IMG/VR virus record: IMGVR_UViG_2706794681_000003
Origin: a virus
Taxonomy: Duplodnaviria > Heunggongvirae > Uroviricota > Caudoviricetes
Strand: one strand, 5' to 3'
DNA: 7,606 nt
Shown: positions 1 through 7,606 of the stretch, one piece after another
Numbering within the stretch: position 1 is the first letter of the stretch
Layout of the letters: every line of letters starts with the position of its first letter
Position numbers and translations under genes: made by a program
Notes under the pieces: model-generated
The model's input: the letters and a program-made list of their open reading frames with translations, nothing else
What the model was told of the DNA's origin: nothing
The model's database searches: none

Positions 1-119
1 GTCCGGGCATGAAGATACCCCGCGCTCAGCGTGGACTGATGTTCAGACGCCCATGCAGGCGCACCGGATACGGCCAGACAAATGGCTGCGGACAAAATGG
101 CGGCACAAACTTTACGCAT
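1..119 (-). CDS. lom: Lom-like outer-membrane/secreted protein, 5' partial (first 39 codons; continues beyond window start)
   Basis: Minus-strand ATG at 119..117, preceded by GAGAGG about 5 nt upstream. Translation MRKVCAAILSAAICLAVSGAPAWASEHQSTLSAGYLHAR is open to the window edge and has a typical signal peptide (basic n-region, hydrophobic core, A-W-A cleavage motif). It sits immediately downstream of J, where lambda carries lom. Too short for the supplied ORF track. Confidence 0.6.
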   Translation of the reverse strand, partial: MRKVCAAILSAAICLAVSGAPAWASEHQSTLSAGYLHAR

Positions 120-124
120 AATTA

Positions 125-130
125 CCTCTC
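125..130 (-). promoter_or_regulatory. Ribosome-binding site for the lom-like gene
   Basis: Minus-strand GAGAGG ending about 5 nt before the ATG at 119. Confidence 0.5.
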
Positions 131-143
131 GCTTTTCTGCAAT

Positions 144-167
144 AAAAAAGGCGTCATTCCTGACGCC
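144..167 (-). terminator. Rho-independent terminator downstream of J
   Basis: On the minus strand: GGCGTCA-GGAA-TGACGCC (7-bp perfect GC-rich stem, 4-nt loop, 150..167) followed directly by TTTTTT (144..149). Lies 23 nt after the J stop codon and before the lom RBS. Confidence 0.65.
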
Positions 168-189
168 ATTTATTGGGGTTATAAATATT

Positions 190-3100
190 TCAACGAATAC
201 TGATGCCGGAAGCCGCTTTTTTGGTCACAATCACCGTACAGTCGGTGATATTGCCTGCCCCCTGATTGCCTTTCTGGAAAATCTTAAACTCCAGAGTGAC
301 GCTACCACCACCACTAGGCATATCAATAACTGCACTGTAACTACCGGGAATGGCACCTTTAGTTTCTCTGGATGCGATTAATACGCCGTTTTTGCGAACT
401 TCAAAACCATAACCCGTGTATCGCGTGCCTCCTGGGTTATTTCCGCTCCCCGGATCGTCATACGCTATACCGTTAAAAATAATGGGCGGAATAATAATCT
501 GGCGGTCAAAGTTATGATCATCGCTTATGGTGACTGTAACCGTCCCGTTTGGTGTTTCCGTGTTACCCCACGTACCAGCCTGTTTCGGAAATGATTTGGA
601 TACAGCTTTAACGAAGTCACCTCTGACCTGAGTCGCCTCCAGCATGCCCTTAATCGTACAGTTTTCATTTACCGTGACATTGTTGAGCGTCCCGGCGTTC
701 GCATTCACACTGCCACTGATATCCGCATTTTTAGCGGTCAGCTTTCCGTCCGGAGTCAGGGAAAATGCCGATGGATTTCCACCGCTGGTAATGGTGGGGG
801 CCGTCAGGCGTTTCAGGAACACGTCGTTCATGAATATCTGATCGCCCTGACCAACAAACATCGGTTTTGTGTTGCCATTCGCAGGATTAACCATCGCAAT
901 CCTGTCCGCCGCCAGCAGCACCTGACTCTGCATGCCGTCAGGGGTGTTCTCAATACCGGCACCAATACCCGCGATATAAAGGCGTCCGTCCTGCATCTGC
1001 TGCAGCTTCACAGCCCACATGCTGTTCAGGTTATTATTTGTATCAACCTGAACCTTCTGTATCTGCTGAATTGCCGCACTCTGGTCTTCCAGTTTCTTAT
1101 TGACGGTCTGCGTGATTTCATTGCTGACATCCGTAATGGACGTCCTGATTTCAGCCAGGTCAGGCGCAAGCTGACCGTTATCAATCTGCGTCCACAGCTC
1201 CTGAGCCAGATGGGTTTTCCCTATCTCGCCTTTGAAAAAATCCAGATAACCGGATGCATCATCACTCGGCTGACCAACAGCCTCCACGAATGCCGATTTG
1301 CCAACGGTGTTCACACTGCGGATATAAAAGTAATAATCATGGCCCGGTTTGATATTGATACTGGCGGCTATCCAGTACAGCGCCGTGCCAAGATAGCGTG
1401 CTGTGGTTTCAACCTGCCTGATATCCGCAATCCGCTTTTCCGAGAACCAGAACTCAAACTGTACCGTCGGATCATAAACCGCAAGATGCGGCGTGGCGGT
1501 TATCTGAAAATAGCCCGGCGTCAGCTCAATCCGCGACAGCGCTGCCGGTGCGGCAATCCGGAACGATACCGACGCCGGATCGCCCTGCTGCCCCCACGCA
1601 TTTACTGCCCGGACTGTCAGCCTGTAGTTCCCCAGCGCCAGTTGTGTGAAGCGGTAAGTGGTTTCCGTCGTCCGGGCCGTGCTGACCNNNNNNNNNNNNN
1701 NNNNNNNNNNNNNNNNNNNNNTCAGGTGCTGCACCGCTGGCGGCGTGACACCATTCACCGTGCCGCTCTGGTCGCCGTCAAAGTGCGCCCCGTTATCCAC
1801 GATGGCTTCTTTTTCCGGCACATGCTGCACGGCGGTGATGGCATACGTGCCGTCGTCGTTCTCACGGATACTCACGCAGCGGAACAGGCGCTGGCGCAGC
1901 GTCGGCAGCTTCAGCCCCCATACGCTGTATTCAGCAACACCGTCAGGAACACGGCTCACTTTTACCTTCACGCCGTCGGTGACGGACTGGACCTCCACGC
2001 TGACCGGATTACCCTCACCGTCAACCAGGCTTATCAGCGTGGTGCCGGAGGATGGCAGCGTGATTTCACGGTCGAGCGTCAGCGTCCGGGTCTGGCTGTT
2101 CACCGCCAGCACGCGCCCGCCGGTGCGGATACCGGCATAGTCATCATCGCAGATTTCAATGACATCGCCCGGTACATGACGAAGCCCTTCAGCACCCACG
2201 CTGAAATCCACGGTCTGCGTCTCCAGCAGTTCCGTTTTAATCAGCCACAGCCCGGCGCGGTGTGCCTGCCCCCGGCTGGTACAGCCAAAGGCATCCATCT
2301 TCGTGACGTTACGACCGTAACGGACAATGGCCTGCGTATCCTCCACAAGCTCTGTCGCCGTCTCCCAGCCGTTATCCGGGTCAATCCAGTTCACCTCAAC
2401 GGCATTATGGCGGTCTTTCAGGGCGCTGAAACTGTAGCGGAACGGCGCGCCATCATCCGGCATCACCACATTACTGCGGTTATAGGCCCACACCTTATCC
2501 GACTGTCGGTCCTGCACGAACGTCAGCGTCTGCCCGTTCCATACCGGCATACAGCGCATCGCCGAGCAGAAATCACTGAGCACATCCCACGCCTTGCGCT
2601 GTGTGGTCAGCCAGGCATTACAGGTGATGCGCGGCTCCGTGCTGCCAAAGCCGTCCGGCACCGACTGGTCACAGTACTGGCCGATGACATACAGCGCCCA
2701 TTTATCCACATCTGCCGCACCAAGACGTTTCCCCATGCCATAGCGCGGATGGGTCAGCATATCCCACAGACACCAGGCCATGTTGTTGCTGTATGCCGGT
2801 TTTAACGTTCCGTCCCAGATACCGCTGTATTGCCGCGTCTGCGGATTATAGTTCGACGGCACCTGCAGAATGCGCCCGCGAAGATGATAATTACGGCTCA
2901 CCTGCTGGCTGCCGAACTGTTCCGAGTCCACCTGCACACCGACCAGTGCCGTGTTCGGGTAGCACTGTTTCACATCGATGATTTCGGTGTATGACGACCA
3001 GAGCGTTTTGTTCTGCAGCTGGTCTGTGGTGCTGTCCGGCGTCATTCTGCGCATCCGGATATTAAACGGGCGCGGCGGCAGGTTATCCACCACCACTGAG

Positions 3101-3594
3101 GCCAGATACTGCGAGGTGGTTTTACCCTTAATGGTGATGTCTTTTTCCGTCACCCAGCCACCGTTACGCTGTATCTGAACCAGCAGGCGAACTTCAGACG
3201 GATTCCTGTCTCCCTTTGAGGTGGTTTCCACCAGTGCCTGTACACCGAAGGTAAAACGCAGTCGGTCAATGTTTGCCGACGTGATGGTCCGGGTGATCGG
3301 CGTGTCATATTTCACTTCCGTACCCAGCACCGTCTCGGAGCCGGAGGATTCAAACCCCTCCGGCGGTGACTGCTCCTGCTCACCTGCCCGGAACACCACC
3401 GTGACGCCGGAGATGTTGGTATTCCCCTCACTGTCCAGCACCGGCGTACTGTTCAGCAGCACGCTTTTTAATCCATCCACCGGACCTTCAACCGGCCCTT
3501 CGCTGATGGCATCGATCACACTCAGCAGCTGCGTGGACTTCAGGTTGTCCTTCGCTTCGCGCGGGGTATGCCCCTTACTGCTGCCTTTACCCAT
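190..3594 (-). CDS. J: Central tail fibre / host specificity protein J (tail tip), 1134 aa
   Basis: Full ORF, ATG at 3594 with GGAG about 8 nt upstream. The N-terminal and central portion ([24 protein letters not shown]...) is near-identical to lambda gpJ as I recall it. The C-terminal ~360 aa are divergent and lower in GC. Contains a 34-nt N block (1688..1721) that keeps the frame. Confidence 0.95.
1688..1721. other. Masked/unresolved sequence (34 N) inside J
   Basis: Run of n characters; the J reading frame is preserved across it (12 X codons). Confidence 0.99.
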
Positions 3595-3654: not shown

Positions 3655-4227
3655 TCAGCGACCAATCACCACAACCTGACCACCGTCCCCTTCGTCTGCC
3701 GTGCTGATCTCCTGAGATACCACACGTGACCCCACGCGCATTTCACCATACAGAACAGGCATAACATTGCCCTGGGCAACCATGTTATCCAGTGAGGAGA
3801 AATAGGTGTTCTGCTTACCGTTATCCGTTGTCTGTGTGCGGGGAGTTCTGGCTTTCGGTGCCAGCATCTGAGCCACACCGCCGAGCACCATACTGGCACC
3901 GAGAGAAAACAGAATGCCGGTCATACCACCGGCACCAATGGCAGCCCCCCATGCTGCAAGGGTGGCTCCGGCGGTAAAGAATGATCCGGCAATGGCGGCT
4001 GCTCCCAGGACAATCTGGAATACACCACCTGACTTGGCCCCGGCGACTCTGGGAACAATATGAATCACAGCGCCGTCAGGCAGAGCCTCATGTAACTGTG
4101 CCGTTAATCCGGACGTGCTAACATCCTGCCCGGCAATACGCACCTGATACCAGCCGTCGCTCAGCTTCTGACGAAACGCAGGGAGCTGTGTGGCCATCGC
4201 CCGGATGGCTTCAGCCCCTGTTTTCAC
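3655..4227 (-). CDS. I: Tail tip assembly protein I (start uncertain; may extend to 4251)
   Basis: ORF KTGAEAIRAMATQLPAFRQKLSDGWYQVRIAG... ending ...EGDGGQVVVIGR matches lambda gpI as recalled. The track start at 4227 is a GTG. The frame is open upstream only to an in-frame TGA at 4267..4269. The codon at 4251..4249 is 'atn' on the minus strand, which would be ATG if the masked base is C on the plus strand. There is a 60-nt spacer before J. Confidence 0.85.
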   Translation of the reverse strand: MKTGAEAIRAMATQLPAFRQKLSDGWYQVRIAGQDVSTSGLTAQLHEALPDGAVIHIVPRVAGAKSGGVFQIVLGAAAIAGSFFTAGATLAAWGAAIGAGGMTGILFSLGASMVLGGVAQMLAPKARTPRTQTTDNGKQNTYFSSLDNMVAQGNVMPVLYGEMRVGSRVVSQEISTADEGDGGQVVVIGR

Positions 4228-4882
4228 ACGAAGATCGATGCGGCGGCCNATACCTCTCTCGTTTGCTCAGTTGTTCAGGAATATGGTGCAGCAGCTCGCC
4301 GTCACCACAGTAAATGGCGGCATGATTCGGCACCGATGAACCAAAACAGCACAGCAGCACATCGCCCGGCTGCGCCGCTGACAACGGCACCTGATACAGC
4401 CCTGTGGCCTCCAGATTATCCAGATAGAGATTCTGACCGTGACGCCACCAGTCATCCTCACGATAAAAGTCCGGCATCTCAATCCCCGCCAGATGGTAAG
4501 CGTCCCGGAACAGCGTGTAACAGTCCGTCACCCCGTGCTCAAAGCGCCGCCCGGTAAGATGTGGCACACAGCGGAACTTGTGAATCGCCCCCCGGCAGAC
4601 CAGCCACCACGGCAAATCACTCTGCACCTGCAGCCGCCGGTCGGCCTCACTCAGCCAGGGCAGACCACCGGGGTGGCTGTGGACCAGTGCCACAATCTCA
4701 CCCTGCATCTCTGCCTGCAGCCAGTCTTCCGGCGACATACGGAAATACGCCTCCGGCTCACCGGAGATATTCACGCAGGGGAAATATCTTTCCCCCTCCG
4801 GCGTTCTTACCACGAAGCCGCACGACTCCGCTGGAGCACATCGCCGGGCGTGCGCCAGAATCGCTGATTCTGTCTCTGTCAT
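4211..4882 (-). CDS. K: Tail tip assembly protein K (JAMM/MPN + NlpC/P60 two-domain protein)
   Basis: ORF MTETESAILAHARRCAPAESCGFVV... with a JAMM motif H-S-H-x7-S-x2-D (residues 68-81, nt 4640..4681) and a downstream Cys (residue 121, nt 4520..4522) followed by His residues, as in NlpC/P60 enzymes. ATG is 5 nt after the L stop. The 3' end overlaps the I start region out of frame. A single masked base (4249) lies in the last 13 codons, so the exact C-terminus is uncertain. Confidence 0.85.
   Translation of the reverse strand: MTETESAILAHARRCAPAESCGFVVRTPEGERYFPCVNISGEPEAYFRMSPEDWLQAEMQGEIVALVHSHPGGLPWLSEADRRLQVQSDLPWWLVCRGAIHKFRCVPHLTGRRFEHGVTDCYTLFRDAYHLAGIEMPDFYREDDWWRHGQNLYLDNLEATGLYQVPLSAAQPGDVLLCCFGSSVPNHAAIYCGDGELLHHIPEQLSKRERYXPPHRSSCENRG
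4249..4249. other. Single masked base (n) in the K/I overlap
   Basis: Single n character; it affects one K codon and a possible I start codon. Confidence 0.99.
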
Positions 4883-4887
4883 GGGAT

Positions 4888-5586
4888 TTACTGCGAAAGT
4901 TTGTTAATGGAAAGGAAGCCGCCAAAGTTGCCGACGTTATTGCGAAACTTACAGCCACTCAGGCATTTGCTGCATTTATCCTTCGTGATGTCGGACGTTG
5001 GCTGGTCATATTCATCCGCGACCGCCGGACCGTGATAACCGCACTCATCGCCGCGATAGGTCCAGGTGCAGGTGTTGGCCAGCATGATACGTCCCGGAAA
5101 AACAGCGCCATCTGTTTCCGTCGGCGTGGACAGCACAAAGGAGGCACTGACCGCGCTCAGTTCGCTGCACTGCTCGACGCGCCAGCGGCTGATCACCTCC
5201 TGCTCCGGATCGGCATCACTGTTTCCGTTGACGAAATTCACCGCATCCAGAAAACGGGCGTAAACCTTACGCCTGACCACCGTTCCGCCGACCAGACTCT
5301 GTAGATCTTCCGCCATCCCGGTGACCATACCGTACAGGTTAGAAACCGTCAGCGTGGGGCGCGTACTGGTGCCTTTGCCATTCAGTTCAAAACCACTCCC
5401 CTGAATGGGATACGGCTGATACTGTCGCCCCTGCCAGGTGACCGGCTCACCTTTTTCGTTCTGCTCATTACAGAAAAAATAACGTTCTCCACCGACCTCT
5501 GTCAGATCGATTTCCCAGAGCACCACGCTGGCCGACTGCTCCGCACGGGTGCATTCATTCAGTGTTTCCTGTTGGATATCCTGCAT
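4888..5586 (-). CDS. L: Tail tip protein L, 232 aa
   Basis: Full ORF MQDIQQETLNECTRAEQSASVVLWEIDL... with C-terminal cysteines at residues 173, 182, 205, 208 and 212. Its start overlaps the M stop (TGATG). Same length as lambda gpL as recalled. Confidence 0.95.
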   Translation of the reverse strand: MQDIQQETLNECTRAEQSASVVLWEIDLTEVGGERYFFCNEQNEKGEPVTWQGRQYQPYPIQGSGFELNGKGTSTRPTLTVSNLYGMVTGMAEDLQSLVGGTVVRRKVYARFLDAVNFVNGNSDADPEQEVISRWRVEQCSELSAVSASFVLSTPTETDGAVFPGRIMLANTCTWTYRGDECGYHGPAVADEYDQPTSDITKDKCSKCLSGCKFRNNVGNFGGFLSINKLSQ

Positions 5587-5915
5587 CAGTTCACCACCTG
5601 TTCAAACTCTGCGCTGAACTCAACACGCAGCATACTGACCCGCGACGACCATTTTGCGCAGGTCACCTTTATCTGCCGCCACTCATAAGGCGGCGTCCAC
5701 AGAAAGGCTTTCCAGCCCCCGTGCTCTTCCAGAAACGACTCCAGTACCATGGCCTCCTCACGGGGGACAGAAAGCGTCACGCTGTACGTTTTCAGGTTGG
5801 CATTCAGCCCGGCAGGCGCTCGCTGGGAATAGCCATCACCAAAGCGCACCTTTCTTACAGAAGGGGCCGAAGCCACATCCATACCGGGTTTCACTTTCCA
5901 GCGGAAGGTTTTCAT
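5586..5915 (-). CDS. M: Tail tip protein M, 109 aa
   Basis: Full ORF MKTFRWKVKPGMDVASAPSVRKVRFGDGYSQRAPAGL... Its ATG overlaps the H stop (ATGA at 5915..5912). Same length as lambda gpM as recalled. Confidence 0.95.
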   Translation of the reverse strand: MKTFRWKVKPGMDVASAPSVRKVRFGDGYSQRAPAGLNANLKTYSVTLSVPREEAMVLESFLEEHGGWKAFLWTPPYEWRQIKVTCAKWSSRVSMLRVEFSAEFEQVVN

Positions 5916-7606
5916 CGTCCACCTCCGGAGAACAGGCCACCATCACGCATCTGTGTCTGAATTTCATCACGGGCACCCTTGCGGGCCATGTCATACACGG
6001 CCTTCATCATCTGTGGACCTGGCAGACCATTCGTACCGTCGTTCTGAATNNNNNNNNNNNNNNNNNNNNNNNNNNNNNNNNNNNNNNNNNNNNNNNNNNN
6101 NNNNNNNNNNNNNNNNNNNNNNNNNNNNNNNNNNNNNNNNNNNNNNNNNNNNNNNNNNNNNNNNNNNNNNNNNNNNNNNNNNNNNNNNNNNNNNNNNNNN
6201 NNNNNNNNNNNNNNNNNNNNNNNNNNNNNNNNNNNNNNNNNNNNNNNNNNNNNNNNNNNNNNNNNNNNNNNNNNNNNNNNNNNNNNNNNNNNNNNNNNNG
6301 CCGCCACCAACAGCCCCGCCAATGGCGCTGCCGATACTCCCGACAATCCCCACCATTGCCTGCTTAAGCAGAATTTCTGTCATCATGGACAGCACGGAAC
6401 GGGTGAAGCTGCGCCAGTTCTGTTCACTGCCGGTCAGCATCGCCGCCATATTCTGTGCAATACCATCAAAGGTCTGCGTGGCAGCACTTTTAACCTGCGA
6501 CATACTGTCCGTGGCGCTCTCTTCCCACTCACTCCAGCCGGACTTCAGGCCTGCCATCCAGCTCCCGCGAAGCTGGTCTTCAGCCGCCCAGGTCTTTTTC
6601 TGCTCTGACATGACGTTATTCAGCGCCAGAGGATTATCGCCATACTGTTCCTTCAGGCGCTGTTCCGTGGCTTCCCGCGCTGCCTGCCGGTCAGTCAGCC
6701 CCCGGTTTTTCGCATCAATGGCTGCCCGTTTTGCCCGTTGCTGCTGTGCGAATTTATCCGCCTGCTGCGCCAGCGCATTCAGGTGCTCCTGATACGTAAC
6801 CTTGTCACCAAGTGCAGCCAGCTGGCGTTTGTACTCCAGCGTCTCGTCTTTATGCGCCAGCAGGGATTTCTCCTGTGCGGACAGCTGGCGACGTTGTGCC
6901 GCCTCCTCCAGTACCGCGAACTGACTTTCTGCCTTCCACAAATCCCGGCGCTGCTGGCTGATTTTCTCATTCGCTCCGGCATGCTTCTCCAGCGTCCGGA
7001 GTTCTGCCTGAAGCGTCAGCAGGGCCGCATGAGCACTGTCTTCCTGACGATCGCCCGCATACACCTTCACGCCGGACTGTTTCGGCTTTTTCAGCGTCGC
7101 TTCATAATCCTTTTTCGCCGCCGCCATCAGCGTGTTGTAATCTGCCTGCAGGATTTTTCCGTCTTTCAGTGCCTTGTTCAGTTCTTCCTGACGGGCGGTA
7201 TATTTCTCCAGCGGCGTCTGCAGCCGTTCGTAAGCCTTCTGCGCCTCTTCGGTATATTTCAGCCGTGACGCTTCGGTATCGCTCTGCTGCTGCGCATTTT
7301 TGTCCTGTTGACGCTGTTGATCTACCCTCTTTTGGGCTGCATCCCGCTCCAGGCGTTTTTTTTCACGATCATCCCAGTAACGCGCCCGTGCTTCATCGTT
7401 AACGAAATAATCATCCTTGCGCAGATTCCAGATGTCGTCTGCTTTCTTAAACGCAGCCTCTGCCTTAATCAGCATCTCCTGCGCGGTATCAGGACGACCA
7501 ATATCCAGCACCGCATCCCACATGGATTTGAATGCACGTGCAGTCCTGTCTGCCCAGGTCTCCAGCGTGCCCATGTTCTCTTTCAGGCGGCGGGTCTGGT
7601 CATCAA
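5912..7606 (-). CDS. H: Tail tape measure protein H, 3' portion (5' end beyond window; interrupted by masked block)
   Basis: The minus-strand frame is open to the window end (…DDQTRRLKENMGTLETWADRTARAFKSMWDAVLDIGRPDTAQEMLIKAEAA…). It contains a long charged, Q/K/E/R-rich predicted coiled-coil region, then the hydrophobic Gly-rich MVGIVGSIGSAIGGAVGGG, then the N block, then IQNDGTNGLPGPQMMKAVYDMARKGARDEIQTQMRDGGLFSGGGR and a stop overlapping the M start. The two flanks of the N block are in different frames (ORFs 5991..7574 and 5912..6346). Confidence 0.9.
6050..6299. other. Masked/unresolved sequence (250 N) inside H
   Basis: Run of n characters. The H frame upstream and downstream of the block would need a span of 250±1 mod 3 to join, so the block length is probably not the true length. 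Confidence 0.99.

Follow-up and report, generated by a model that had tools for sequence, protein, structure and literature searches.

In the 7,606-nucleotide stretch of viral DNA analysed here (the window; IMG/VR record IMGVR_UViG_2706794681_000003), the distal part of the tail fibre gene J is very probably a mosaic of two independently exchanged cassettes, one forming the shaft and upper beta-prism and the other a C-terminal tip of the phage 434 type that likely docks on OmpC. The window contains a lambdoid tail-tip operon in the order H-M-L-K-I-J-lom on the (-) strand, where all long open reading frames (ORFs) with homologues in the program-made ORF list are found. Comparison of ORF order gave the same H-M-L-K-I-J succession in lambda, phi458 and 434. 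The annotation of 434 also includes a terminator in the corresponding position 3' of J, and this phage shares the order I-J-terminator-lom. The Pfam labels of the neighbouring genes in a contig labelled Shigella sonnei (GCA_900159355.1, here L008) are also consistent with the place of J in the tail-tip operon. The window has the following layout:

5991-7574, (-) strand: H, tape-measure gene, truncated at the window end and interrupted by a 250-N run
6050-6299, no strand: the 250-N run in H, read from the sequence
5586-5915, (-) strand: M, from the ORF list
4888-5586, (-) strand: L, from the ORF list
4211-4882, (-) strand: K, from the ORF list, with a single N at 4249
3655-4227, (-) strand: I, from the ORF list
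190-3594, (-) strand: J, tip attachment protein or central tail fibre, 1134 codons as read, with a 34-N run inside
1688-1721, no strand: the 34-N run, within FNIII-1 (Ig_J), replacing about 127 nt (43 codons) that phi458, lambda and 434 possess
150-167, (-) strand: terminator-like hairpin with a T-run after it, located between J and lom, read from the sequence
1-119, (-) strand: beginning of a lom-like gene for an outer-membrane protein (Ail/Lom), from the sequence, the Escherichia coli annotation under the match and the gene order of phi458 and L008

The domain series and the operon position identify J as a lambda-type tip attachment protein. A Pfam search with the window's own translation retrieved FNIII-A_GpJ, Phage-tail_3, Ig_J, Ig_J_second, Phage_Tail_Tip and Ig_GpJ_C, with E values from 1e-14 to 1e-43. 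The Ig_J match is truncated by the N-run, and the complete six-domain set is present on phi458 J. Phage_Tail_Tip (E = 2.5e-31) spans the middle cassette and the conserved island described below, and Ig_GpJ_C (E = 1.1e-25), the "C-terminal receptor binding domain," spans the last ~135 residues. Because the 34-N run stands for about 127 nt, J reads 93 nt shorter than its relatives, with the frame kept across the gap. The 1134-residue product given in the original prediction is correct for the ORF as read but includes 12 X residues, and alignment with relatives indicates that the real protein is probably 1165 residues long, like that of phi458. L008, which is 99.1 to 99.9% identical to the window at the nucleotide level (97.8% for the best complete E. 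coli genome), carries a 141-N gap (7860-8000) at the same site in J, and these N-gaps look like an assembly break in a gene with several prophage copies. Over its full length, J shows 95 to 96% nucleotide identity to the J genes of phi458, ev099, Ayreon and cdtI, and its last 369 residues match a partial S. sonnei "phage tail tip protein" (P0002) at 100% identity.

J was aligned with its counterparts in lambda, 434, phi458, Chlobot and 2851, and later in phage 21 and Lambda_2E9, and identity was scored both by sliding window and by segment. Five segments were distinguished, listed here 5' to 3' in the gene with their protein identities:

1552-3594, (-) strand: hub domains and FNIII-1; 97% to lambda, 98% to 434, 98% to phi458, 98% to Chlobot
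1228-1551, (-) strand: FNIII-2 up to ...YLDFFKG; 94% to lambda, 95% to 434, 99% to phi458, 98% to Chlobot
889-1227 (889-1279 with the mismatch zone), (-) strand: middle cassette of type B, alpha-helical shaft and upper beta-prism; 42% to lambda, 44% to 434, 100% to phi458, 100% to Chlobot
670-888, (-) strand: conserved island, lower beta-prism, with ...SGSVNAN; 88% to lambda, 85% to 434, 99% to phi458, 95% to Chlobot
193-669, (-) strand: receptor-binding domain, Ig-like (Ig_GpJ_C), 434 type, 159 codons; 41% to lambda, 95% to 434, 97% to phi458, 46% to Chlobot

The sliding nucleotide identities and the mismatch maps agree with these segment values. Nucleotide mismatches to lambda are dense between 1279 and ~841, and none fall in 1280-1386. 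The original prediction had placed the departure from lambda just after YLDFFKG, followed by a conserved island and a divergent C-terminal stretch of about 150 residues. The alignments bear out this outline and support an exchange of distal J relative to lambda: the mismatches begin some 14 codons before the motif, the island is present, and the last 159 residues are 37 to 41% identical to those of lambda. The identity drop sought by pairwise alignment was found, but as two separate drops, to 42 and 41%, rather than one. The island at 670-888 is 85 to 99% identical across all J types compared. Identity to Chlobot collapses immediately 3' of it, and identity to 434 recovers at its 5' edge. The alignments thus place the crossover zone between the two cassettes in this island. 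The last 159 codons are also 97% identical to those of phage 2851. A finer breakpoint is visible within the receptor-binding domain at ~520: on its 5' side the window is 100% identical to phi458 and 88 to 90% identical at the nucleotide level to 434 and 2851, and on its 3' side it is 99 to 100% identical to 2851 and 434 and 87 to 96% identical to phi458.

The two cassettes assort independently. The type-B cassette is joined to different receptor-binding domains in phage 21 (21-type), Lambda_2E9 and Chlobot (A8-like), and the 434-type domain is joined to the short lambda shaft in 434 and to a third shaft type in 2851. Phage 21 J and the Chlobot or "A8" gpJ share the type-B shaft with the window (97 to 100%), whereas their receptor-binding domain belongs to a third type, 46% identical to that of the window. 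In the phage collection, the middle cassette was found in 67 records, 65 of them at 90% identity or more, and the 434-type domain in 74, with both together in about 23 to 25. Among the best 120 database proteins, the 434-type domain (92 to 100% identity) occurs with middle cassettes that are 97 to 100, 79 to 81, 72 to 76, 59 to 61 and 29 to 45% identical to that of the window, that is, with at least five middle-cassette classes, and type-B cassettes are also joined to receptor-binding domains of only 40 to 54% identity. Both cassettes are common in complete E. coli genomes, with the type-B cassette present in 3559 of 5426 (two thirds) and the 434-type domain, at 92 to 100% identity, in 2092 of 5426. 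At least 80% of window positions 1-1600 was found in one place in 1173 of the 5426, so that the combination occurs in ~22%. The same full-length combination of type-B shaft and 434-type domain is found in phi458, cdtI, Ayreon, ev099, ev243, mEp332 and some Stx2 phages, which are 94 to 97% identical to the window over 190-1300 and ~96% over the full length of J at the nucleotide level, with differences that are allelic only.

The type-B middle cassette is 28 residues longer than that of lambda and is 97% identical to that of phage 21 at the nucleotide level. According to the published lambda structure, gpJ continues after FNIII-2 as an alpha-helical shaft, a beta-sheet prism and an Ig-like receptor-binding domain, and shaft residues 841-861 refold into a sheet upon LamB binding. 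The cassette aligns to lambda residues 821-905, with the 28-residue difference at ~835-845, and on this ground it corresponds to the shaft and upper prism and includes no receptor-contacting part. It also covers the stretch that in lambda refolds from helix to sheet on receptor binding. An AlphaFold2 monomer model of a 369-residue fragment displays long helices in the cassette, but pLDDT is below 50 for fragment residues 1 to 225. Because the fibre part of the monomer model cannot be relied upon, the description of a longer helical shaft draws on the lambda alignment and the published structure. It is conceivable, though we consider it improbable, that the type-B shaft and upper prism constitute an independently selected mechanical transducer, tuning O-antigen reach or the DNA-ejection threshold whatever the porin, with the short form of lambda as the minority; this minority status is an assumption, the genome counts being those of type B.

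The receptor-binding domain closely matches that of 434. Of its 159 residues, 151 are identical in the two phages (95%; similarity 98%, no gaps, E = 3e-115), leaving eight substitutions, and a 15-residue loop that has no counterpart in lambda is identical to that of 434. Structure prediction gave pLDDT values of 70 to 92 for this domain, and the best Foldseek matches were the gpJ structures of A8 (9wca, closed, and 9wcb, with OmpC) and lambda (8xck, closed, and 8xcj, with LamB), with E = 1.3e-23 to both 9wca and 8xck and a target-normalised TM-score of 0.66 to 9wcb. A sequence search of the PDB matched lambda gpJ and A8 gpJ through to the C terminus (E = 1e-97 to 1e-107). The model therefore assigns to the domain the Ig-like fold of the solved gpJ domains. 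Among these, A8 gpJ (9WCA; 9WCB with OmpC) is a solved J receptor-binding domain bound to OmpC.

The assignment of a receptor follows from a comparison of lambda with 434. Identity between the J proteins of these two phages is 98.5, 96.3, 98.8 and 94.5% over the first four segments and 40.5% over the receptor-binding domain, and a lambda phage given the J gene of 434 binds OmpC, which is the receptor that 434 uses (PMC3509688, PMC11101478); a third paper likewise treats the 434 fibre as OmpC-targeting. Because lambda and 434 J differ essentially in this domain only and 434 J gives OmpC use, we infer that OmpC specificity maps to the 434-type domain. OmpC is thus the likely receptor of the window's J allele, as judged by sequence relationship, and LamB probably is not, the domain being of a different type; the suggestion in the original prediction of an outer-membrane receptor other than that of lambda is in keeping with this. 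In the literature, no adsorption, host-range or receptor data were found for phages with the same J allele (phi458, mEp332 and the PhiR phages), and a 2026 receptor-prediction preprint covers the GpJ of Drexlerviridae and not the J type of the window. Three 20- to 21-mers conserved among 434-type domains were absent from the supplements of a base-editing paper that uses chimera 1A2, where the sequences are perhaps not given as text.

The J of the window can be set against those of lambda and 434. Lambda gpJ (8IYK, 8XCK, 8XCJ) has the same domain architecture, is 94 to 97% identical over the first two thirds and belongs to the same receptor-binding-domain fold family. It differs in its shaft cassette, including the 28-residue difference, lacks the 15-residue loop and uses LamB, whereas the J of the window likely uses OmpC. 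In 434 J, the hub, FNIII domains and island are 85 to 98% identical to those of the window, whereas the shaft and upper prism are of another type, with that of the window 28 residues longer, and over the ~150 nt at the 5' end of the receptor-binding domain nucleotide identity is just 88 to 90%.

We propose that positions 190-1300 specify the distal portion of a lambdoid prophage's trimeric central tail fibre, in which the cassettes would have been exchanged separately by homologous recombination in conserved flanks. The first cassette would be the shaft and upper beta-prism, in the common type-B form seen in phage 21, phi458 and Chlobot, and the second the C-terminal Ig-like receptor-binding domain of the phage 434 type. 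Putative recombination flanks lie at the end of FNIII-2, in the lower-prism island and in the terminator and lom region downstream of J. As in the pairs lambda and LamB and A8 gpJ and OmpC, three copies of the receptor-binding domain may dock on a trimeric porin, most likely OmpC, and we infer that the rearrangement on docking would travel up the prism and shaft and open the tail tip.

The original prediction had instead taken the last ~360 codons of J as one compositionally foreign module, marked by a GC step at its boundary and devoted as a whole to receptor binding. The step itself is real. GC contents of 0.52, 0.42, 0.52, 0.50 and 0.50 in the 60-nt windows of 421-720 and of 0.47 at 1201-1260, against 0.62, 0.65 and 0.65 at 1501-1560, 1741-1800 and 2041-2100, reproduce the earlier hand counts almost exactly. 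A two-segment likelihood change-point in J gave a GC of 0.594 before and 0.497 after (2*dLL = 30.5), a value reached in 0 of 200 shuffles of 30-nt blocks, of which the highest was 17.5, and a Mann-Whitney test on 60-nt windows gave p = 9e-7. GC is accordingly lower over 190-1500 than over 1512-3594, and identity to lambda does fall past ~1279. However, the change-point lies at ~1512 and not at 1250-1400 as had been proposed, which is ~230 nt 5' of the homology break, within the stretch whose protein is 94% identical to that of lambda. It corresponds to gene nt 2083 and, because J reads 93 nt shorter here, to nt 2176 of the relatives, precisely the position of the change-point in the J genes of lambda, 434, phi458 and Chlobot. 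GC and GC3 of FNIII-2 are 0.52 and 0.56 in the window and 0.53 and 0.59 in lambda, against 0.59 and 0.72 in the hub and FNIII-1 of the window, and in the middle cassette GC matches that of its lambda counterpart (0.52 versus 0.51). The receptor-binding domain alone is compositionally unlike its lambda counterpart, with a GC of 0.47 against 0.55. Since the step recurs in lambda J at the homologous position, upstream of the break, it is no evidence of exchange, and the reduced GC throughout the 3' third of J is an older, ancestral property of the family, lambda included. The region is further split by the island, its two diverged blocks are paired differently in 434, phage 21, Chlobot and 2851, and the receptor-binding domain family is matched by 193-669 only. 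A single module is hence highly improbable: two cassettes, at 889-1227 and 193-669, flank the island, and it is just the last ~160 codons that belong to the receptor-binding domain, the upstream cassette being shaft and upper prism. The case carries a caution, as a GC step within a gene does not by itself show recent exchange when the reference gene has the same step.

With J read as two cassettes, two further alternatives bear on its function. The 434-like domain may, owing to its eight substitutions, use another receptor or only certain OmpC alleles. Precedents exist, in that the native receptor of phage 21 is LamB and a single J substitution is reported to add OmpC, and in that A8 and 1A2, which are natural gpJ C termini, differ in the OmpC variants they accept; for these reasons, the specificity could differ from that of 434, for instance in the OmpC alleles recognised. 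The gap-free match to 434 at 95% identity and 98% similarity argues against a change of receptor, as do the 15-residue insertion, identical to that of 434, and the wide occurrence of this domain type, and such a change appears unlikely. Similarly doubtful is the alternative that J belongs to a decayed prophage and forms no working fibre, the mosaic then being without present function in the host. The window probably derives from a draft S. sonnei assembly, N-runs break both J and H, K contains one N, the 34-N run hides ~127 nt of J, and the protein database holds an aberrant duplicated S. sonnei J fragment (P0001). Yet the six tail-tip ORFs all remain open apart from the N-runs, the frame of J is maintained across its gap, and J is 95 to 96% identical at the nucleotide level to those of phages propagated on named E. 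coli hosts (such as phi458 and Ayreon).

A 434-type (h434) domain on a J backbone that carries the common long shaft is already known and falls within the known mosaicism of lambdoid tail fibres. The central fibre of this prophage can be annotated as 434-type and probably OmpC- rather than LamB-binding, with little import beyond annotation. The map of crossover zones (end of FNIII-2, lower-prism island, and terminator and lom region) is useful for the design of chimeric J proteins like those with which lambda particles have already been retargeted.

Some minor features of J were also observed. The drop in GC and GC3 lies at approximately lambda codon 725, just inside FNIII-2, and is common to lambda, 434, phi458 and Chlobot in a stretch that is 94 to 99% conserved; it may represent an old mosaic boundary of the J family. 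In phage 2851 J, the change-point occurs later, at nt 2482 of its own gene. P0001 (Shigella sonnei, 608 residues) is a J fragment that contains the segment from FNIII-2 to the island twice, joined as ...NPPAFSLTP followed by PTVQFEFWF..., and arose either through aberrant recombination or through misassembly of J genes present in several copies. On the (+) strand, a 531-codon open frame (1210-2805) runs antisense to J, and in L008 a 303-codon antisense ORF was called, without a Pfam match. The frame over J most likely arises from the GC-rich codon usage of this gene rather than being a gene itself.
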